This document shows, piece by piece, positions 3,104 to 60,060 of a stretch of DNA of 64,000 nt. Positions within the stretch are counted from its first letter, which is position 1. Each line of letters begins with the position of its first letter. The DNA comes from Candidatus Falkowbacteria bacterium GW2011_GWF2_43_32 (GTDB taxonomy: Bacteria > Patescibacteriota > Patescibacteriia > Patescibacteriales > UBA12465): NCBI GenBank assembly GCA_000999715.1, contig LCGL01000001.1, positions 323,139 through 387,138 on the forward strand, read 5' to 3'. The notes beneath the pieces are model-generated. The model saw nothing but the letters and a program-made list of their open reading frames with translations. It had not been told where the DNA came from and made no database searches. Made by a program: the position numbers and the translations under genes.

Positions 3104-4306
3104 CTACAGATACCGCGGTAAACGGCGCTTGGTTTTCAGGCTGGGAACCTTGATACAATAGATTAAAGCCCAAAAAATCCGGGCCAAACGACTTCGCAAA
3201 TGCCAGCCCCAGAGATTGCCTAAGGCCGATTTTTTACCCAAAGTCAAAAATTCACCGCGATGCTTATAAACAAAAGGCCGCAAGGGTTTGTTGAGCACAA
3301 GTGCTTCAATGTTTCTCGCCGCCACGACAGCCTGTTGATTGGCTACTTGCGCCAATCCGGGAAGAGGTCCCCCGTTTACCAGCAAACAAGAACTGTCCCC
3401 TAAACACAGAACGTTACGATGACCTTTCATTAATAATTCCGGAGTAATTTCCAGCCGGCCATTAACCGCCACCGGCTGATTGCCTAAAAATTCAGGAGTT
3501 TGCGCTTTAAGACCCGCGGCCCAAATAATATTTTCGGCCATAATTTCTTGACCGTTTTGCAAAACAATCCCTCGCGGCGACAAAGATTCCGCCAAAGAAT
3601 TAAAAATAATTTCCACGCCGATTTTATCAAAACATTTTCGAGCTTCGGCTCTCATCCAAGCGGGAAAAGAGGCCAAAATTTCCTGTCCGCGACTAATCAG
3701 TTTTACCGAAAACTCATTATCGCGCAAATGACTGCCCGCACTCAAAAAATGTTTCTGTTGATTCAACAATTGTTCTTGAATATGGGCCGCCAGCTCGACT
3801 CCGGTGGGACCGGCGCCTAAAACGGCAAAAGATAACAGTTGTCGCCGACGTTGTTCGTCACTTTCTTGAGAAGCAAGCAATAAAGCTTTTTCAATTTTGT
3901 CGCTTAAGCGAAGGGCGTCGTCAATGTCTTGAAATTTATAAATTCGGGAGCTTTCTGCCGGAAAAAAAATATCAGCTTTAGCTCCGGTGGCAATAACCAA
4001 AATATCAAAAGTCAAAATCGTTTTTTTCAATCGGACTTGACGCCGCTCCAGATCAACGGCGATTATTTCTTGATGATAAAAAGTCGTCCGCTTATCCAAT
4101 AAGCTCACCAAAGGAATGGCCACCTCGTCCGATCGCAAACGACCGAAAATCAATTCGGGCAACAAAGGAGTAAACAAAAAATAATCTCGCCGATCTACCA
4201 AAGCCAGCTCTATCAGTCCGCGACGCTGAAGCGGCTTTAACAGTTTGGCGGTTTTAATCCCGCCGAATCCCGCTCCCAAAATGACGACTCTTTGTTTATT
4301 TGTCAT
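3104..4306 (-). CDS. ndh: type II NADH dehydrogenase / FAD-dependent pyridine nucleotide-disulfide oxidoreductase
   Basis: 400 aa with an N-terminal VVILGAGFGG Rossmann motif and a second GAGPTGVE dinucleotide-binding motif. The length and layout fit NDH-2. Confidence 0.75.
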   Translation of the reverse strand: MTNKQRVVILGAGFGGIKTAKLLKPLQRRGLIELALVDRRDYFLFTPLLPELIFGRLRSDEVAIPLVSLLDKRTTFYHQEIIAVDLERRQVRLKKTILTFDILVIATGAKADIFFPAESSRIYKFQDIDDALRLSDKIEKALLLASQESDEQRRRQLLSFAVLGAGPTGVELAAHIQEQLLNQQKHFLSAGSHLRDNEFSVKLISRGQEILASFPAWMRAEARKCFDKIGVEIIFNSLAESLSPRGIVLQNGQEIMAENIIWAAGLKAQTPEFLGNQPVAVNGRLEITPELLMKGHRNVLCLGDSSCLLVNGGPLPGLAQVANQQAVVAARNIEALVLNKPLRPFVYKHRGEFLTLGKKSALGNLWGWHLRSRLARIFWALIYCIKVPSLKTKRRLPRYL

Positions 4307-4334
4307 GGCCGAATTTTATCATAAATTGTCTTAA

Positions 4335-4364
4335 TAAAAAAGAGCTCCCGAAAGCTCATTTTTT
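4335..4364. terminator. bidirectional intrinsic terminator upstream of ndh
   Basis: Hairpin GAGCTCCCGAAAGCTC (4342-4357), flanked by an A-run on the left and TTTTTT on the right. Confidence 0.6.
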
Positions 4365-4416
4365 GTAAATATGGTATTTTCACCAACTATTTTTGGGCAT
4401 TAAACCATAAATTAAT

Positions 4417-4444
4417 ATAAAAAGCCCACGTTTTATAGTGGGCT
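4417..4444 (-). terminator. intrinsic terminator of mini-unit 1
   Basis: Minus strand reads AGCCCAC-TATAAAAC-GTGGGCT followed by TTTTTAT. Confidence 0.6.
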
Positions 4445-4480
4445 CTTGCCTTCTCCTTTAAAGGCATTAAACAGTTTGTG

Positions 4481-4582
4481 TTAATAACAACCCTGTTTCC
4501 CAGTCGTTTTCAACAACTCCCTCTTTTGGTGATTTCGTGGCGAGCCGCGAGAATTTTTAACACTTTTTCTAATGTACTTCAT
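4481..4582 (-). CDS. 33-aa highly basic small protein (mini-unit 1), function unknown
   Basis: Own translation: MKYIRKSVKNSRGSPRNHQKRELLKTTGKQGCY*. A GGAGG sequence lies 8 nt upstream of the ATG, which is rare in this window. The ORF has its own TTGACA-17-TATTAT promoter and its own terminator. It is too short for the ORF track. Confidence 0.45.
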   Translation of the reverse strand: MKYIRKSVKNSRGSPRNHQKRELLKTTGKQGCY

Positions 4583-4623
4583 GTCTTTTTCCTCCATATT
4601 AAGTTAATACTAAAGACATTTAA

Positions 4624-4652
4624 ATAATATATCTGTTATACCTTCTTGTCAA
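4624..4652 (-). promoter_or_regulatory. sigma70-type promoter of mini-unit 1
   Basis: Minus strand: TTGACA (4652-4647), 17-nt spacer, TATTAT (4629-4624). Confidence 0.6.
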
Positions 4653-4733
4653 TTGGTTTACTTTCTCACAAAGAATCTATATTTTTAAAACAAAAAATGA
4701 CCATAAAATTATTTTTATACACCCCCTTACGGG

Positions 4734-4793
4734 GTGGCTAACCGCAAAACTTGGCAAACTTTTTTGATGGAGTGCTTGATACATTAAAAAAAA
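4734..4793. repeat. conserved inter-unit module, copy M1
   Basis: Plus strand: gtggctaaccgcaaaacttggcaaacttttttgatggagtgcttgatacattaaaaaaaacc. The first 40 nt differ from M4 at only 2 positions. All four copies share the core AAACTTG(G/A)(C/A)AAACTTTTTTGAT. Confidence 0.85.
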
Positions 4794-5013
4794 CCACCTA
4801 CATGAGATGGTTTTTGTAAAATAGTTCTTTAAGATACCGCAGTGATATCGCAATCCGCAAAGAGCTTCGGCCCACCCTCACAGGATGATTTTTTTATGCC
4901 TTAGCTACAATTCTGGGTTATCAACTCTTAGTGAGGACTTCCCCTTTAATTAGGTTAACCATCTTGCGAGTGATGGTCAGATACTTTGCCTAACTTTCTC
5001 AAAAAGAACTATA
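4785..5013 (-). ncRNA. candidate non-coding RNA A (mini-unit 2), about 229 nt, unknown family
   Basis: A promoter (TTGACT-16-TAAGAT) lies upstream. The terminator hairpin AACCATCT-CATGT-AGGTGGTT plus a U8 run is at 4812-4784. No start codon with a usable ORF is present. The 5' end (5012-5003) is perfectly complementary over 10 bp to 4830-4821, just before the terminator. There is also an internal hairpin ACCATC/GATGGT. Confidence 0.5.
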
Positions 5014-5018
5014 TTTAA

Positions 5019-5046
5019 ATCTTAACATTAGTATTCAAAAAGTCAA
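5019..5046 (-). promoter_or_regulatory. sigma70-type promoter of mini-unit 2
   Basis: Minus strand: TTGACT (5046-5041), 16-nt spacer, TAAGAT (5024-5019). Confidence 0.5.
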
Positions 5047-5112
5047 TAGATTGTACAACATTAAACTTAAAACAAAAAATAATTCCTAAAAAGAAATTGT
5101 TTTTATATATGA

Positions 5113-5176
5113 GTGGCTATTCGAGAAACTTGAAAAACTTTTTTGATTAAATATTTGATAAATTGATATAAAAAAG
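5113..5176. repeat. conserved inter-unit module, copy M2
   Basis: Plus strand: gtggctattcgagaaacttgaaaaacttttttgattaaatatttgataaattgatataaaaaag. It differs from M3 at about 1 position over roughly 48 nt. Confidence 0.85.
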
Positions 5177-5199
5177 ACCCGCGATATTGTTACGGATCT
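5170..5199 (-). terminator. intrinsic terminator of mini-unit 3
   Basis: Minus strand: AGATCCG-(11-nt loop)-CGGGTCT followed by TTTTTTA. Confidence 0.6.
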
Positions 5200-5245
5200 T
5201 ACAGTTTTTATTTAAACATATTTTGAGGGCATGAGCTAATAGTGA

Positions 5246-5398
5246 TTAAACCTCAAAATTTTCCCTAATGGAGTAAAGAAACGCCAACATGAAAGCTGCG
5301 CCAGCGCAAGCTAGAGTTATAACTGATGCTTCAGACTTCCAGTAAAAAACAAAAATGCCAAAAAGAATTGCTGTAAAATAATTAAAGAATGTTTTCAT
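5246..5398 (-). CDS. 50-aa two-TM hydrophobic peptide (mini-unit 3)
   Basis: Codon-by-codon translation: MKTFFNYFTAILFGIFVFYWKSEASVITLACAGAAFMLAFLYSIRENFEV*. An AGGAG sequence lies 9 nt upstream of the ATG. The ORF has its own promoter, a roughly 115-nt leader and a terminator. Confidence 0.5.
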   Translation of the reverse strand: MKTFFNYFTAILFGIFVFYWKSEASVITLACAGAAFMLAFLYSIRENFEV

Positions 5399-5430
5399 AA
5401 CTTATGACTCCTATTTTTAATGTTAAATAT

Positions 5431-5486
5431 AATTAGATTAATTATTAAGTTTACTAACATTAATAGACTTAATAATTAATCTAATT
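5431..5486. promoter_or_regulatory. perfect 20-bp inverted repeat in the 5' leader of mini-unit 3
   Basis: aattagattaattattaagt (5431-5450) is the exact reverse complement of 5467-5486, with a 16-nt loop. It lies between the predicted start site (about 5512) and the SD/ATG (5398). Confidence 0.8.
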
Positions 5487-5519
5487 TTAACCTTTTTGTA
5501 ATGAACTATATAACTAAAT

Positions 5520-5548
5520 AATATATCACATATATTATATTTTGTCAA
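5520..5548 (-). promoter_or_regulatory. sigma70-type promoter of mini-unit 3 (extended -10)
   Basis: Minus strand: TTGACA (5548-5543), 17-nt spacer ending in TGTGA, TATATT (5525-5520). Confidence 0.6.
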
Positions 5549-5635
5549 TCAATTTATATTATTTAATACTGTTGAGCCACATTTTAACCTTACATAATAG
5601 AAAAACCGAGCTTTCGGACCCGTGCTTTCCTTAAT

Positions 5636-5929
5636 CTATTCCCAAAAAATTAATACCAATGAAACAACCCCCAACAAGAAACCGATGATTTGAATTCTAT
5701 TAATCGGCTCCTTATAAAGCACCATCCCCAATATTACTGCGATAATAGCCGACGCCACAGAAAAAATAATTGCTCCTCTTCCTAGTCCGGCTCCATTTTT
5801 AAGAGAAAACAACCAAAAAGAATTTGCCACCAAATAAAGAGCAAGGCTGATTATTGCAAACCAAATTATTTTTTTTAGCGACCACTCTTTTGCAAATACG
5901 TCAGCAACTGCTTCAAAAATTATTAACAA
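5636..5929 (-). CDS. SMR/EmrE-like small multidrug-resistance-family membrane protein, possibly 5'-truncated
   Basis: 97 aa with four TM segments. The motif IIFEAVADVFAKEW aligns with the EmrE TM1 segment ILAEVIGTTLMKF, including the membrane-embedded Glu. The start is a TTG with no SD, only 5 nt from module M3. Confidence 0.5.
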   Translation of the reverse strand: MLIIFEAVADVFAKEWSLKKIIWFAIISLALYLVANSFWLFSLKNGAGLGRGAIIFSVASAIIAVILGMVLYKEPINRIQIIGFLLGVVSLVLIFWE

Positions 5930-5934
5930 TAAAA

Positions 5935-5988
5935 GCGGAAAACTTGAAAAACTTTTTTGATTAAGTATTTGATAAATTGATATAAAGA
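5935..5988. repeat. conserved inter-unit module, copy M3 (left part missing)
   Basis: Plus strand: gcggaaaacttgaaaaacttttttgattaagtatttgataaattgatataaagag. It lacks the GTGGCTA.. left end found in M1, M2 and M4. The SMR-like ORF starts where that end would be. Confidence 0.85.
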
Positions 5989-6238
5989 GAGGGCTAATTG
6001 CTTAGCCCTCAAAAATTTAGAACTCGTTGAACTGCTTTCAAGGCTATTTCACTCTATTCGCCCCTTCGATTAATAAGGACGGTATCTTATTTTTGACTCC
6101 GCTAAAGCTGGCGCCCTAGGTTCACAGTCTCCCGCCTATTCTGCACATTACTAATCTATCTTCAAGCCAACATACAGGAATTGGACCCGCTGGAGATATA
6201 ATCTCTTGCGCCCATTGCGCTACATTGTTTCTAAATTT
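5985..6238 (-). ncRNA. candidate non-coding RNA B (mini-unit 5), about 255 nt, unknown family
   Basis: The promoter is TTGACA-17-TAATAT. The terminator-like hairpin GAGGGCTAAGCAATTAGCCCTC (6010-5989) has only a weak U-tract. No ORF longer than 9 codons is present. The 5' end (6238-6228) pairs over 11 bp with 6023-6013, just before the terminal hairpin, which is the same architecture as RNA A. Confidence 0.45.
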
Positions 6239-6244
6239 AATTAA

Positions 6245-6273
6245 ATATTATAAATAAAATCAACTTTTGTCAA
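6245..6273 (-). promoter_or_regulatory. sigma70-type promoter of mini-unit 5
   Basis: Minus strand: TTGACA (6273-6268), 17-nt spacer, TAATAT (6250-6245). Confidence 0.6.
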
Positions 6274-6346
6274 CAAAAATACAGCAAGATCTATTTTAAC
6301 CCTCATATCCCAGAAAAAAGCAAAATAGTTCATTTTTCCCAAATAG

Positions 6347-6410
6347 GTGGTTAATCGCAAAACTTGGCAAACTTTTTTGATGGAGTATTTGGTGAGTTGA
6401 TAAAAAAGAG
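6347..6410. repeat. conserved inter-unit module, copy M4
   Basis: Plus strand: gtggttaatcgcaaaacttggcaaacttttttgatggagtatttggtgagttgataaaaaagag. Confidence 0.85.
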
Positions 6411-6433
6411 ACCCTTGATGTTATCGCGGGTCT
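6402..6433 (-). terminator. intrinsic terminator of mini-unit 6
   Basis: Minus strand: AGACCC-(12-nt loop)-GGGTCT followed by CTTTTTTAT. Confidence 0.6.
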
Positions 6434-6459
6434 AGAAATTAGGTAATAAAATCTTTAAT

Positions 6460-6609
6460 TTACATAAACATCAGAGACATCAAAATAAATACCGCAGCAA
6501 TAGCCCACGCAAGCGATGATTTTTTAGATTTTTTTTTAAAACTAAAATATAAACAAAGAATACCGGTAATGAATACTAACACTTTTAAAATTAGAATAAA
6601 AATTTCCAT
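6460..6609 (-). CDS. 49-aa two-TM hydrophobic peptide (mini-unit 6)
   Basis: Codon-by-codon translation: MEIFILILKVLVFITGILCLYFSFKKKSKKSSLAWAIAAVFILMSLMFM*. It has the same TM-charged loop-TM layout as the 5246-5398 peptide. Its leader carries a degenerate version of the unit-3 palindrome. The SD is weak (AGAAA). Confidence 0.4.
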   Translation of the reverse strand: MEIFILILKVLVFITGILCLYFSFKKKSKKSSLAWAIAAVFILMSLMFM

Positions 6610-6717
6610 TATTTCTATTTTTTAATTTAACAATTCGATTAATTCTTAAATTTACTATTTATAATAAACTTAATAATTAACCCAATCGTTTTTTGTAAAA
6701 GAACTATATAACGAAAT

Positions 6718-6746
6718 ATCATATCACATTTACTATTTTTTGTCAA
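6718..6746 (-). promoter_or_regulatory. sigma70-type promoter of mini-unit 6 (extended -10)
   Basis: Minus strand: TTGACA (6746-6741), 17-nt spacer ending in TGTGA, TATGAT (6723-6718). Confidence 0.6.
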
Positions 6747-6838
6747 TTAATTTGTCTTCCCACTAGGGGGTAACAAGACCAAAACAAAAAATAACCCCAA
6801 TCCGCCAGCCGGCGGAGGAGTTATTTTCGCTAATATTA

Positions 6839-7057
6839 GGGTGCCTACTGGGAGTATCTCACTCAGCCGCCGCCGGAAACGCGGCGGCTTCGCTCGTCCT
6901 GGGTTGGCGCCGAGCCCTGCGCCAGCTCGGGTTCGTCGACGCTCGTCCGCTCATTTCGGCTTCCGCCTCAACTCGCGTCTCGCTTCCAACCTGTTCAACT
7001 TCCCGGCTAACGCCGACAGTAATAAAAGAACGCGCAAATGCGCGTTTTTTTATTACT
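6839..7057 (-). repeat. tRNA-His trailer module: hairpin, inverted T-arm copy, GC-rich spacer, 17-bp repeat of the tRNA 3' end
   Basis: gggtgcctactgggagt occurs at 6839-6855 and again at 7058-7074 inside the tRNA (17/17). The hairpin is at 7018-7057. gttcaacttccc (6993-7004) is an inverted T-arm copy. The spacer at 6856-6992 is GC-rich. Confidence 0.85.
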
Positions 7058-7058
7058 G

Positions 7059-7130
7059 GGTGCCTACTGGGAGTTGAACCCAGACTATCGGGACCACAAC
7101 CCGACGTTCTACCGCTAAACTATAGGCACC
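7059..7130 (-). tRNA. tRNA-His (anticodon GUG) with encoded G-1
   Basis: Cloverleaf read by eye: GGTGCCTA acceptor including G-1:C73, anticodon stem TCGGG/CCCGA, loop TTGTGGT, T-arm TGGGTTCAACTCCCA. Confidence 0.85.
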
Positions 7131-7169
7131 ATGATTATATTTTAACGTATCTTTAACGATCGTTAAACG

Positions 7170-7241
7170 TACGCCCGGGGGGAGTCGAACCCTCATCTAG
7201 AGCTTAGAAGGCTCCCGTTCTATCCGTTGAACTACGGGCGC
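7170..7241 (-). tRNA. tRNA-Arg (anticodon UCU)
   Basis: Acceptor GCGCCCG/CGGGCGT, anticodon stem GGAGC/GCTCT, loop CTTCTAA, T-loop TTCGACT. Confidence 0.8.
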
Positions 7242-7363
7242 AAAAATAATCCGTAAAAAATAATTAGGAAATTTTCCTCCCTAATTATTGTCTTATATTA
7301 ATAAAAATATTCATTTTTGTCAAACTGCTAATAAATCATTATCTGTTTGCCGATAAGCCTCTT

Positions 7364-8173
7364 TTATTCTATCACTTCTCTTTGCCGTAAGACCTCAAAA
7401 ATAATGACCGCGGCCGCCACTGAAACATTGAGGGAGTCGATTCCCTTGTTCATCGGAATTTTAATCAGCTCGTCGGCGTCTTTCAACCACTTAGCACTTA
7501 AGCCTTCGGACTCCGATCCTAAAATAATCGCCGTCGGCCCGCTCAAATCAACTTGCGTATAATTTTTAGAAGCGCCGGTGGCCGCGCCAAAGCTTTTTAT
7601 TTTCTTTTCTTTCAACCATTTAATCGTTTCGACGATAGACGCGCTGACGACTTTTTCCGTAAAAACAAGTCCTTCGCTGGCTCTAATAACATTCGGATTA
7701 TAAATGTCCGTTTGATTGTCGTTAACAATCACCGCCGCCGCGCCGGCCGCATAGGCGGTTCGGATTATCGCCCCGAGGTTTCCCGGTTTTTCCACCGCCT
7801 CCAGAACAACAATTAATGGATTATCGTTTAGTCTGATGTCTTTAAAGGTCGTTTCTTTTGTTTCGGCAATCGCCAAAAATCCCTCCGGCTTTTCTTTATA
7901 TGAAATCTTATGAAAAGCCGATTCGGAAACTTCAATTATTTTTTCCGTAGCCACTCCGAAAAATTTATCGCTGTTCCCGACAGTGCCCTTTATCAAGCTC
8001 GGACAATAAAACAAATTATTGATTTTCAATCCGGCCTCAATCGCCAATTCAATTTCGCGCGCACCGTCAATAATAATCAAACCGCGAGTTTTTCTTTCGC
8101 CGGTCTTTTTAAGTCGCACCGCTTCCTTGATTGTCTGATTGCTCAGGCTATTTATTGTTTTCATAATTTTCAA
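7364..8173 (-). CDS. SpoU/TrmH-family RNA 2'-O-methyltransferase (RlmB-like)
   Basis: 269 aa. The C-terminal part has the SpoU motifs LEAVEKPGNLGAIIRTA, ILGSESEGLS and IPM.G.IDSLNVSVAAAV. Confidence 0.8.
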   Translation of the reverse strand: MKIMKTINSLSNQTIKEAVRLKKTGERKTRGLIIIDGAREIELAIEAGLKINNLFYCPSLIKGTVGNSDKFFGVATEKIIEVSESAFHKISYKEKPEGFLAIAETKETTFKDIRLNDNPLIVVLEAVEKPGNLGAIIRTAYAAGAAAVIVNDNQTDIYNPNVIRASEGLVFTEKVVSASIVETIKWLKEKKIKSFGAATGASKNYTQVDLSGPTAIILGSESEGLSAKWLKDADELIKIPMNKGIDSLNVSVAAAVIIFEVLRQREVIE

Positions 8174-31752: not shown

Positions 31753-31936
31753 AGTCAATATTAGTTAATTTGCCCGGGCTTGACTGCAAGTTATTTTTGT
31801 GATTTAATTGAAAGTCGATTGGTGTGGCCCTTTAACAACAATGAATTAATCAATGATTTGATTATCGGTTAAAGCTTTAATAATTAGAGTTTTGTCCGAT
31901 AATCAGATCTAGTATTAATTTAAAATAGAAAATGTC

Positions 31937-32470
31937 ATGAAAAAAGTGTATTTATCGTTACTTGTTGCGGTCGTTATTATTGCCGGTCTTTATATTTATA
32001 AAAAATCAACCAGTATTTTGGAACTCGTTTCTGTCGGCCAAGAGCTGACAATAGAAATTCCGCGAGATCGATTGTTTCTTGCCGAAGCCGACAGGATGTT
32101 CAAACATATTGATCCTCGATTGCTGGCGATGGAAAAAAATAAAATTAACCATTCAAACTGCCAAATCACGTTTGACGTTTACGACGCCGACTGTAAAGTC
32201 GGACAAAATTTAGCCGATATTTTTGCCGCTCTTCCTCAGACGAATCGGGAAACGTTAACCTGGGAAGAGGTCAAGATTTTTTGCGTTAAACATTACGCCT
32301 CCTTGGCTCAAGGAGGAAGAGTTAATTTATTTTTAGTGGAAAGCAGCGAACAACAATCAAAAGTTTTTGTCTATGTTGACCCGGACGGATTTTATGTTCT
32401 TTTCCAGTTGTTTGAATATGACGATTTTTGGATCGGTGAAAGTTCCTGGCGCCTGATCGTGCCTCGTTAA
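31937..32470 (+). CDS. hypothetical protein with an N-terminal TM/signal segment
   Basis: 177-aa ORF with a TTGACT-17-TTTAAT promoter near 31778. I recognised no family. Confidence 0.4.
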   Translation: MKKVYLSLLVAVVIIAGLYIYKKSTSILELVSVGQELTIEIPRDRLFLAEADRMFKHIDPRLLAMEKNKINHSNCQITFDVYDADCKVGQNLADIFAALPQTNRETLTWEEVKIFCVKHYASLAQGGRVNLFLVESSEQQSKVFVYVDPDGFYVLFQLFEYDDFWIGESSWRLIVPR

Positions 32471-39601: not shown

Positions 39602-39700
39602 GTGGACTTGAGGGGACTTTCGCGCTCGTTCGCCGCTTGTTCGAGTTCCTTTCGATCAGTCAATAAATTATTCAGACAAAGCCTGAATAATTTATTGATG
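39602..39700 (-). repeat. tRNA-Ala(CGC) trailer module: hairpin, inverted T-arm copy, GC-rich spacer, 17-bp repeat of the tRNA 3' end
   Basis: gtggacttgaggggact occurs at 39602-39618 and at 39700-39716 in the tRNA (17/17). A 16-bp-stem hairpin is at 39661-39697. gttcgagttcc (39639-39649) is an inverted T-arm copy with 1 mismatch. The spacer is ttcgcgctcgttcgccgctt. Confidence 0.85.
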
Positions 39701-50672: not shown

Positions 50673-50919
50673 CTAAAAAAAAGAACCCCACCTGCGTGGG
50701 GTTCTTTTTTTAAGATTGAAAGCATAAGGGACTTGAAAGCCGGAGGCGATGCGCACTTGTGCGCCGCCGAGGCCGGGTCGGGGCGCTTAGCGAGTGAGAC
50801 TTGCGAAGCAAGCGAGCGAGGCTTAGCGACCGTGACCAAGTCCCTTATGGTCCACTAATGAAAACAACCCGAACTGCTTTGGGTTGTTTTCATTAAAGAT
50901 AAAAATAAGGGACTTGAAC
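50673..50919 (+). repeat. tRNA-Ala(GGC) trailer module, doubled: hairpin, inverted T-arm, GC-rich spacer, 22-bp 3'-end repeat, second hairpin, second inverted T-arm
   Basis: caagtcccttatggtccactaa occurs at 50655-50676 and 50837-50858 (22/22). cataagggacttgaa (50723-50737) and ataagggacttgaac (50905-50919) are 15-nt exact inverted copies of the T-arm. Hairpins are at 50676-50712 and 50859-50895. The GC-rich spacer is at 50738-50836. Confidence 0.85.
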
Positions 50920-58585: not shown

Positions 58586-59024
58586 AATAAAAATAAGTGA
58601 CCCGATTATTCAAGGTCACTTAATATATGACGAAGATTCGAATCTTAATTTAATAGATTAATTATGGCATATAATTATAATTAAGTCAAGGATTATACGT
58701 TTTCGTTTCTTCGTTCTTTTGTCATTTTTCGTCAGCTTTAAGTTCTATCATTGTTAAACCAGCTTTTATTTGGACATATAAAAAGGTGCGAAAGGTTATT
58801 TAAGCGACGGTTTAATTATATAGGTAGCTTATCCATAGCGGCAGTTTATTAAAAAGTTAAAAAAGACCAGAATCATTGACATTTTTTATGATGTATGTTA
58901 ATTTATAACATTAAAACCGTTCTTTCAAAAATAGGGTTAAATTGGATTAATTATCAAATCCACCTGTTCAGGCGAATTTGTAGTTAATCTAATTATTCTT
59001 AAACCTTTATAAAATTGATAAATC

Positions 59025-59843
59025 ATGAAAAAAATTAGTGTATTGCTCGTAATGTCAGTTATTTTAGTTTGTCAGTGCTTCGGCCAGCAATATAAAATTG
59101 ATTATGAAAAAAATCGTTCCGGTAAAGACATTTACTATGTATCTAAAATTAAAATTGAAATTGAAGATGCAGATACTTTATTTTTTATCGATCAAGCTAT
59201 TCCTGGCATCAAACGAATTGAAGCTTATGAAGAAGGCATCGCCTTTTACGACACCAGTAGAGTGTCGAGCAATTATAATGCTAATCATTTTTGGCTAACT
59301 CGATATTATAATATGGAGTATAAAATTGCTAAATTTGATAAAGCCAAAAAAGAGATTAGACAAACTGTCGCAACTACGGTGTCATCAGATTCCTCTGTGT
59401 CTGTTGAAATTATAGTAATTTTGTTCCTGGCCATTATTTTGGTATTATCAATATTTTTAACAGAGACCGGTGATTGTTCTGACAAAGATATTGAAAAGCC
59501 GGAATTTGGACTCGTTTTTCTTCTTCCGTGGCTGGGTTATTCCATTTGTTTATTAGTTAGTTTTTTTGGTTCTTTTCATAATCCAGAATCACAAATATTT
59601 GTTGGAGTTCTCATGAGCGTAGCAGGTATATTTTTTGTTGTTTCAATGTTTACAACAAAGTGGAATAAAAATAAATATATTGTTTTCCAAACCGTGAACC
59701 TGTCTATTGCCTTGATGTCAATTGGTGCCATTACCGGAAGTTGGTGGGCATCTTTTGTCTCCATACTAGCTTCTTTATTTTGTTATTCAGTATTTGTAAT
59801 TGTTCGCCGGGCAGCTATTGCAATAACAGAGAAGATCAAATAG
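59025..59843 (+). CDS. hypothetical membrane protein (signal peptide, extracytoplasmic domain, 4-5 C-terminal TM segments)
   Basis: 272-aa ORF that is visibly AT-rich. A TTGACA-17-TAATTT promoter lies roughly 130 nt upstream of the ATG. I recognised no family. Confidence 0.45.
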   Translation: MKKISVLLVMSVILVCQCFGQQYKIDYEKNRSGKDIYYVSKIKIEIEDADTLFFIDQAIPGIKRIEAYEEGIAFYDTSRVSSNYNANHFWLTRYYNMEYKIAKFDKAKKEIRQTVATTVSSDSSVSVEIIVILFLAIILVLSIFLTETGDCSDKDIEKPEFGLVFLLPWLGYSICLLVSFFGSFHNPESQIFVGVLMSVAGIFFVVSMFTTKWNKNKYIVFQTVNLSIALMSIGAITGSWWASFVSILASLFCYSVFVIVRRAAIAITEKIK

Positions 59844-59919: not shown

Positions 59920-60060
59920 AGAGCGGGTAAGGGGAATAGCGTGCTCGATTATTCGTCGTCGCTTCCGCTCCTCCTCATATCTCGCTCGCTACCTGTCCGA
60001 TTCCCGGCTCGACTCTTATAAAATAAAACAGCCCCTGACGAGGCCGTTTCATTTTATAAG
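59920..60060 (-). repeat. tRNA-Gly trailer module: hairpin, inverted T-arm copy, GC-rich spacer, 18-bp repeat of the tRNA 3' end
   Basis: agagcgggtaaggggaat occurs at 59920-59937 and 60059-60076 (18/18). The hairpin is at 60015-60060. gtccgattccc (59995-60005) is an exact inverted T-arm copy. The spacer at 59938-59994 contains ctcgctcgct and cgtcgtcgcttccgc. Confidence 0.85.

Follow-up and report, generated by a model that had tools for sequence, protein, structure and literature searches.

A candidate family of leader hairpins ahead of two predicted small membrane-peptide genes and other orphan genes in a Falkowbacteria genome

Introduction

Bacteria of the Candidate Phyla Radiation (CPR) are uncultured episymbionts with tiny genomes, and to our knowledge almost nothing is known about how they control their genes. 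Here we describe a locus of the CPR bacterium Candidatus Falkowbacteria bacterium GW2011_GWF2_43_32, lying on a stretch of 64,000 nucleotides (nt) that is called the window below. Its subject is a pair of short minus-strand transcription units beside a tRNA-His gene, unit 3 and unit 6, which carry open reading frames (ORFs) for peptides of 50 and 49 amino acids (aa), ORF50 and ORF49, behind long leaders with a prominent hairpin. A preliminary description made from the sequence alone had pointed out both units and proposed for them, among other roles, that of type I toxins. Our preferred explanation, to which we give a probability of roughly one half, is that they are two paralogous, fast-evolving genes for small membrane peptides under a shared and conserved hairpin in the 5′ untranslated region (UTR), and that this hairpin would be a new, lineage-specific leader motif outside Rfam.

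Two Paralogous Units Between tRNA-His and NDH-2

The 3 kb between tRNA-His and NDH-2 are filled by an array of minus-strand transcription units in the order unit 6, alpha (an RNA derived from 23S rRNA), ORF97, unit 3, gamma (a structured RNA) and delta (a unit with a 38-aa ORF), separated by four copies of a repeat termed D1 (Table 1). Units 3 and 6 are discrete assemblies of promoter, leader, ORF and terminator, and the coordinates and translations first given for the two ORFs are exact. Transcription of unit 3 is predicted to start near 5513 and that of unit 6 near 6711, and the promoter positions put both leaders at about 115 nt, the length originally estimated. ORF49 is the NCBI protein UV95_C0001G0264 of this genome and ORF50 is left without annotation in the NCBI record; an ENA metagenome contig is identical to the window, and a 418-kb JGI contig nearly so.

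The two units are paralogues, judging from conserved frames around unconserved ORFs. Their promoters are 83% identical, their terminators 70% and the D1 copies that follow them 77%, although D1 is absent after unit 3 in the related strain L054 and thus lies outside unit 3 proper. The ORFs, for which low identity had been noted from the start, are only 50% identical at the nucleotide level. BLASTP between the two peptides found no similarity, and global and local alignments reach p about 0.014 against composition-preserving shuffles, so that ORF49 and ORF50 appear marginally alignable, with a predicted layout of transmembrane (TM) helix, loop and TM helix in common.

The AGGAG Shine-Dalgarno (SD) sequence ahead of ORF50 is an exception in the window, as the preliminary description had remarked: none of the 45 long ORFs of the window has an SD core, or even a 4-mer of it, at −22 to −4, and the 3′ end of the 16S rRNA keeps CCUCC (CACCUCCUU). 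Unit 6 had been credited with a weak SD and has none; nor have the other genes led by the hairpin, so that the SD is no feature of the class.

A Leader Hairpin on the Sense Strand

At the core of the unit 3 leader, 5431-5450 and 5467-5486 are exact reverse complements of each other, and the arms extend to 30 nt at 90%. The perfect part measures 20 nt, whereas in 200 shuffles of 4301-7400 no perfect inverted repeat exceeded 12 nt. The preliminary description had offered two uses for this palindrome, as a very stable hairpin in the leader RNA or as an operator-like element in the DNA, and had taken its less regular counterpart for a sign that unit 6 may be decaying. Folding of the leaders, which it had suggested as a check, gives stable sense hairpins in both units. 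The sense strand of unit 3 folds at −24.4 kcal/mol (z −5.7) and its antisense strand at −23.7 kcal/mol, whereas in unit 6 the values are −21.8 kcal/mol (z −4.85) and −6.1 kcal/mol (z −0.28). The differences in unit 6 are compatible with G·U pairing on the sense strand, and what is lost is the antisense or DNA symmetry alone, which speaks against decay.

The same picture emerges from an alignment of eight hairpins, with copies from the window and from relatives. It holds 24 pairs, of which 15 show compensatory (double) changes against 8.4 expected; 89% of its cells are paired against 74% in shuffles, none of 500 shuffles reaches any of these measures, and slid registers are only 24-51% paired. 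In all eight hairpins the sense RNA is more stable than the antisense, and G·U pairs outnumber A·C mismatches by 32 to 8. The lower stem is conserved in sequence (ATTGGRTTAATTA … TAATTAATCNAATT) and the apical part varies in length. Since the distance between the arms thus varies among homologues, a DNA operator of fixed spacing was rejected, and the G·U pairing kept on the sense strand only, together with the greater stability there, places the action of the hairpin on that strand, where it would work most simply as 5′-UTR RNA. At the gathering threshold neither unit matches an Rfam family (best RAGATH-30, E 2.5), and the searchable literature holds no account of this hairpin or of related elements in CPR bacteria or Falkowbacteria.

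Unrelated Genes Behind the Same Hairpin

The hairpin census covered the window and the loci of relatives obtained from metagenome scans, labelled L0xx (L054, L087, L070 and so on). With the tRNA-His 3′ end as metagenome query 27 such loci were retrieved, and with the promoter and start-site pattern there was no match in a collection from which the source genome itself is absent. A first covariance model, built from seven hairpins with the copy at about 58929 left out, recovered this eighth copy with 37.6 bits (E 0.002). It precedes a 272-aa orphan with a predicted signal peptide and several TM segments. A refined model pointed to a probable fourth hairpin of the window (23.8 bits, E 0.055), which folds at −34.2 kcal/mol (z −6.6) on the sense and −19.7 on the antisense strand and lies ahead of a 177-aa orphan whose N-terminus carries a TM segment. 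Among 48 window genes, helices of 23 bp or more are seen in the leaders of precisely the four led by the hairpin, whose products all start with MK or ME and continue into a hydrophobic segment. As a specificity control for the covariance model we used 700 kb of AT-rich viral DNA picked by a loose stem pattern (more than 80 loci), in which it had no match, and the leader pattern likewise had none among viral sequences.

Several relatives have a TTGACA promoter and a long hairpin homologous to these ahead of whichever gene comes first after tRNA-His. Four different hairpin-led genes are found just 3′ of tRNA-His in this way; their products are 159 aa long with TM helices at either end (L070), 150 aa with a signal peptide, 235 aa and 129 aa. 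Every copy has a TTGACA promoter upstream and a start codon 9-29 nt downstream of the hairpin. The cargo proteins are unrelated orphans without a Pfam family, mostly with N-terminal TM or signal segments, so that a homologous upstream region stands before non-homologous genes, as in putative mobile promoters, and keeps the fixed orientation and position of a strand-specific 5′-UTR motif. That the two short peptides might be shortened versions of the 159-aa protein of L070, with its homologous leader and TM helices at both ends, received no support from BLASTP. The promoters of the hairpin-led genes in L070/L071/L073/L074 carry, within the first 40 nt after tRNA-His, a 13-bp inverted repeat over the spacer and −10 box (for example AAAAACATATCAT..ATGATATGTTTTT), which looks like a DNA operator distinct from the leader hairpin.

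The Peptides and Their Evolution

P0002 of L054 (86% identity by BLASTP, 84% in global alignment) was the sole homologue of ORF50, both among 5.8 billion clustered proteins and when 1.84 billion representatives were searched exhaustively with a profile, and protein searches found no homologue of ORF49 outside its own genome. Protein homology and family searches with ORF49, ORF50 and ORF38 gave no match otherwise. The genes flanking the locus in L054 are 96.7% identical to the window in nucleotides. The promoter of unit 3 is identical there, and not a single substitution falls within the 181 nt from the −35 box through codon 7, while the rest of ORF50 has nine (eight non-synonymous, one synonymous) and the 3′ UTR five. 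The ratio of non-synonymous to synonymous change (pN/pS) is 2.2 for ORF50, as compared with 0.04-0.14 for NDH-2, YceI and Zip, and under such neighbour-like constraint at least eight non-synonymous changes among nine have a calculated probability of about 2e-4. Total divergence is nevertheless below the synonymous rate of the neighbours, the 153 nt having nine changes where a pS of 0.13 predicts about 20, and all five substitutions in the TM segments replace one hydrophobic residue by another.

What is non-random about the ORFs is their position, rather than their existence. A given frame stays open over 49-50 codons by chance in 4.4% and 1.9% of shuffles for the two units, and here the two paralogues and the L054 orthologue all keep the frame behind the leader open, a joint chance of about 1e-3. 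Both ATGs sit at the same place as the starts of the long cargo ORFs, which supports them as real start codons, and both ORFs end 27-47 nt short of their terminators. The peptides are thus likely to be translated, and a small membrane protein, one of the roles put forward at the outset, is the best reading of the sequence of either ORF; the holin-like role proposed along with it was rejected, with no phage genes or lysis context nearby and only one PHROG holin match at E 0.069.

A Plasticity Zone 3′ of tRNA-His

Whole modules come and go among relatives, and the peptide units are therefore best seen as putative accessory cargo in a plasticity zone linked to tRNA-His. In L054, D1, gamma, a further D1 and delta are missing and unit 3 is fused straight to the region upstream of NDH-2, the homology breaking at the T-tract of the unit 3 terminator with an 8-nt microhomology. 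L087 (73-80% identical) keeps alpha and D1 and lacks unit 6. Elsewhere the distance from tRNA-His to a gene resembling glycogen phosphorylase ranges from 1.4 to more than 3 kb and is occupied by different orphans, and an insertion sequence (IS) or a serine recombinase is present in some of these zones. The 5 kb on either side of the units in the window contain no recombinase. An insertion of an IS30-family element (L054 61-1140; HTH_38 and rve transposase, inverted repeats of ~28 bp) lies some 10 nt ahead of the −35 box of unit 3 in L054.

Table 1. Positions of the units, their parts and neighbouring elements in the window
Feature	Position	Strand	Description
Unit 6 promoter	6718-6746	minus	σ70-type, TTGACA-17-TATGAT, TG-extended, 11/12 matches
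Unit 6 leader hairpin	6620-6697	minus	27 bp including 4 G·U, two 1x1 mismatches; 54.1 bits
ORF49	6460-6609	minus	49 aa, predicted two-TM peptide, KKKSKKSS loop
Unit 6 terminator	6409-6433	minus	stem-loop and U-tract
D1, 3′ of unit 6	6346-6406	minus	61-nt repeat
Alpha promoter	6273-6245	minus
Alpha	5990-6230	minus	stand-alone RNA
Alpha terminator	6010-5989	minus
D1	5926-5986		61-nt repeat
ORF97	5636-5929	minus	EamA/SMR-like four-TM protein
Unit 3 promoter	5520-5548	minus	σ70-type, TTGACA-17-TATATT, TG-extended, 11/12 matches
Unit 3 leader hairpin	5415-5498	minus	core a perfect palindrome; covariance-model score 53.1 bits
SD of ORF50	5408-5412	minus	AGGAG, 9 nt upstream of ATG
ORF50	5246-5398	minus	50 aa, predicted two-TM peptide, TM about 3-20 and 26-44
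Unit 3 intrinsic terminator	5169-5199	minus	8-bp stem, 9-nt loop, U6
D1, 3′ of unit 3	5112-5172	minus	61-nt repeat; missing at that place in L054
Gamma promoter	5046-5019	minus
Gamma	4816-5010	minus	~195-nt RNA without ORF, own terminator
D1	4733-4793		61-nt repeat
Delta promoter	4652-4624	minus	consensus
Delta	4420-4652	minus	two terminators
Delta ORF	4481-4597	minus	basic, 38 aa
NDH-2	3104-4306	minus
Probable fourth window hairpin	31842-31925	plus	12 nt before start
177-aa orphan	31937-32470	plus	N-terminal TM segment
Third window hairpin	58929-59011	plus	14-18 nt before the start at 59025
272-aa orphan	59025-59843	plus	signal peptide and several TM segments
tRNA-His 3′ element	6839-7057	minus
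tRNA-Ala-cgc 3′ element	39602-39699	minus
tRNA-Ala-ggc 3′ element	50674-50855	plus
tRNA-Gly 3′ element	59921-60059	minus

Each D1 copy directly follows a terminator. The D1 core has four matches in the window against 0.01 expected and recurs in three other genomes (L087, L088 and L066/72/75), in the sense orientation and 260-905 nt 3′ of tRNA-His; its six matches among viral sequences are coding-sequence or chance matches. D1 ends in GCCACCC, resembling the 3′ end of tRNA-His, and in L087 a second copy of the tRNA-His 3′ flank follows it, so D1 may be an att-like scar.

The neighbouring modules show a variety of their own. Alpha is related to the L1-stalk region in domain V of 23S rRNA, matching E. 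coli 23S 2034-2182 by nhmmer (E 2.8e-6) and positions 2126-2215 of the Rfam LSU model with 50.4 bits, a match not listed again in narrower rescans; it is 80% conserved in L087 and has a 10-bp closing stem with five compensatory pairs. It could be a decoy that binds protein L1 or a captured rRNA fragment. The 23S gene is not adjacent to the 16S gene in the window. Two contigs from other assemblies (L005 and L006) both stop exactly at 6068, where the 23S-like segment of alpha has its edge, which suggests a repeat or a strain break. ORF97 begins at the exact edge of a D1 copy without a domain start, covering 53-134 of 135 positions of the EamA profile and 10-92 of 93 of SMR, and may be truncated because of this start; an 80%-identical homologue occurs in L067. 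A structured fold is predicted for gamma (−62 kcal/mol, z −2.96), which has no Rfam or rRNA match. The delta ORF (MEEKDMKYIRKSVKNSRGSPRNHQKRELLKTTGKQGCY) has no family match. NDH-2 lacks close relatives and belongs to a single 90% cluster, its other best matches being proteobacterial at 22-33% identity, which is consistent with a foreign origin within the plasticity zone.

Of the 11 tRNA genes in the window, four (His, Ala-cgc, Ala-ggc and Gly) are followed by a terminator hairpin, a GC-rich element and a second terminator. In its 5′ part the GC-rich element runs antisense to the T-arm of the tRNA, exactly so for Gly (11 nt) and Ala-ggc (14 nt) and near-exactly, by eye, for His and Ala-cgc, and at its 3′ end it repeats the last 16-17 nt of the tRNA without a mismatch. 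Between the His element and L087, 17 of 44 pairs are compensatory, and the elements have no Rfam match. They may be a tRNA-targeting mini-element or a functional trailer of the tRNA precursor.

Interpretation and Alternatives

In the explanation that we prefer, units 3 and 6 would be diverged monocistronic paralogues, each composed of a promoter, a leader of ~115 nt, an ORF for a two-helix peptide and an intrinsic terminator, housed in a plasticity zone 3′ of tRNA-His that gains and loses transcription units as wholes. Their leaders would be dominated by a 27-30-bp AU-rich hairpin of a conserved lineage-specific family, acting in cis, on the sense strand and in the simplest case as 5′-UTR RNA, and common to unrelated fast-evolving orphans with mostly membrane-anchored or secreted products. 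We infer that the hairpin may serve as a common element of post-transcriptional control or processing, either as a long duplex that determines stability or RNase III action or as the binding site of a shared regulator. Both peptides would then be accessory envelope proteins of this hairpin regulon, their coding parts under relaxed or diversifying selection and their regulatory frames conserved.

Several observations weigh against this explanation. The molecular role given to the hairpin is a proposal, and G·T wobble on one strand would equally fit a hairpin of single-stranded DNA. Two relatives' cargo proteins (L063 and L089) lack an obvious TM segment, and the envelope regulon is for that reason a tendency and no rule. 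Both peptides are orphans, and the pN/pS of ORF50 is unlike the signature of a conserved protein; the synonymous bias that had been proposed as a check on coding conservation is not seen, although the frame itself has stayed open in L054. The perfectly conserved leader of L054 could in part reflect a recent recombination tract, the nearby YceI being almost identical too. In 4307-7057 two ATG-initiated ORFs of at least 49 aa are observed and shuffles contain 1.84 on average, and the T-rich composition of the sense strand accounts for most of the hydrophobicity of ORF50, which 29% of open shuffles equal or exceed.

Some of these points would suit non-functional ORFs, incidental frames in non-coding transcripts or in relic, ‘empty’ modules of promoter, leader and terminator: a pN/pS of at least 1, an ORF count and hydrophobicity at the compositional expectation, an SD in unit 3 only, and no relative among 1.8-5.8 billion proteins bar that of one near-identical strain. 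We hold this to be rather unlikely, given that the leader-adjacent frame is open in all three sequences, that its start codons match those of long ORFs behind homologous leaders, that it stops short of the terminators and keeps the TM-loop-TM layout, and that its few changes in L054 preserve hydrophobicity throughout the TM segments. It is a quite improbable reading, too, that the hairpin and D1 are features of DNA recombination or mobility, with a hairpin resembling a miniature inverted-repeat transposable element (MITE) or a single-stranded DNA site, an att-like D1, units that are integrase-less cassettes at tRNA-His, and any effect on expression secondary. It would account for conserved frames around unrelated cargo in different genomes, for modules present or absent as wholes, for the recurrence of D1 and its tRNA-like end, for the IS and serine recombinase of some relatives and for a third hairpin-led gene within the 3′ flank of tRNA-Gly. 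Yet neither integrase nor transposase lies within 5 kb on either side, the hairpins are uniform in orientation and in position between promoter and start, unlike random MITE insertions, there is no sign of target-site duplications, D1 is no palindrome, and the break in L054, at a T-tract with microhomology, fits an ordinary deletion. A more elaborate form, in which the units of promoter, hairpin, ORF, terminator and D1 and the neighbouring RNA modules make up an integrase-less but integron-like array of self-expressing cassettes linked to tRNA-His in CPR bacteria, strains swapping small envelope-protein genes through the single-stranded hairpin, D1 or both as recombination sites, would be something of a long shot.

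The type I toxin-antitoxin (TA) pattern, which the preliminary description had put forward with possible convergent antisense promoters, would make ORF49 and ORF50 membrane-damaging toxins held in check by an antisense RNA against the leader hairpin or the 3′ end. The ORFs are indeed small (below about 60 aa) and hydrophobic, each with a strong promoter and a terminator; the two paralogues stand in tandem in an accessory region near a tRNA, with an IS beside unit 3 in L054, and the peptides change fast between conserved untranslated regions. Unit 3 also has a plus-strand promoter-like site at 5404-5433 that faces the palindrome, and a 7-bp pairing is predicted between the 5′ and 3′ ends of its mRNA. 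The site is lost in unit 6, however, where a 3-nt deletion has removed the −10 box, so that no antisense promoter is conserved between the units; such matches are common in this AT-rich region (19 against 11 expected), consensus scans found no plus-strand terminator within either unit, and the antisense hairpin of unit 6 does not fold. D1 as the plus-strand promoter of a 3′ antisense RNA was rejected, its spacer length varying between copies and D1 being absent after unit 3 in L054. In the centroid folds the SD and start codon are unpaired, the hairpins ending 21-29 nt upstream of the ATG in the two units, which would leave translation unblocked, and the same type of leader drives genes of 129-272 aa, so that the hairpin is no toxin-specific device. 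With no significant match to a toxin family in Pfam, NCBIfam or PHROGs and a two-TM topology that is atypical for the class, as already conceded when the idea was raised, we give the toxin reading little credence.

If small membrane peptides under a shared leader hairpin are indeed what the locus encodes, the hairpin-led genes would be among the first candidate post-transcriptional regulons of the CPR. The hairpin would mark strongly promoted, rapidly diversifying envelope orphans and thereby point to the proteins likeliest to act at the host interface. The locus would moreover be a compact natural example of transcription-unit shuffling beside a tRNA gene, holding two further unexplained RNA elements, and it illustrates how a plausible ‘type I toxin’ call can dissolve under comparison of leaders across genomes.

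Comparison With Known Systems

Small bacterial membrane proteins such as AcrZ, KdpF and MgtS are conserved and tied to partner complexes. ORF49 and ORF50 resemble them in having fewer than 60 aa, TM helices and short independent genes of the sort that often go unannotated, and differ in being strain- or species-restricted and fast-evolving. Class II holins, two-TM proteins as well, are encoded beside an endolysin within phage lysis cassettes, and no phage genes lie near the units. Integron cassettes share the short units, the variable cargo and a recurring repeat (here D1) in between, but here each unit has its own promoter and terminator, D1 is no imperfect palindrome of the attC type, and no integron integrase occurs within 5 kb.

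In type I TA systems such as hok/sok, aapA/IsoA and fst/RNAII (reviewed in PMC8309996 and PMC6563280), as in the units, a separate transcript with a long, structured untranslated region encodes a small hydrophobic peptide of the membrane, several copies occur in accessory DNA and the peptide sequence is poorly conserved. The units depart from these systems in a leader that leaves the ribosome-binding site free and also serves larger unrelated genes, in two TM helices without toxin-family homology, and in that consensus scans identified no antisense RNA gene. The resemblance is looser than that to Correia-type hairpins and mobile promoters.

Correia elements of Neisseria are inverted repeats that are transcribed into mRNA leaders as long hairpins, which can be bound or cleaved by RNase III with altered expression as a result (PMC2649163). 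Like them, the present hairpins form a family with conserved arms and a variable center, placed in leaders beside genes. Unlike them, they keep to a single orientation and to a place between promoter and start codon, show no TA duplication at their ends, lie downstream of a promoter that they do not themselves create, and have only four visible copies in 64 kb; all copies in the window and the relatives' loci lie in the sense orientation within 5′ UTRs, and neither the two orientations nor the target-site duplication of MITEs were found. Putative mobile promoters (PMC3488235, PMC3575422) likewise place a homologous promoter and leader before non-homologous genes within and between genomes, whereas what is shared here is for the most part a structured leader that shows covariation, which argues for selection on an RNA element beyond a copied promoter. 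In mode of action, the nearest analogues would thus seem to be the MITE-derived leader hairpins of the Correia type (PMC2649163) together with reused ‘mobile’ promoters (PMC3488235).

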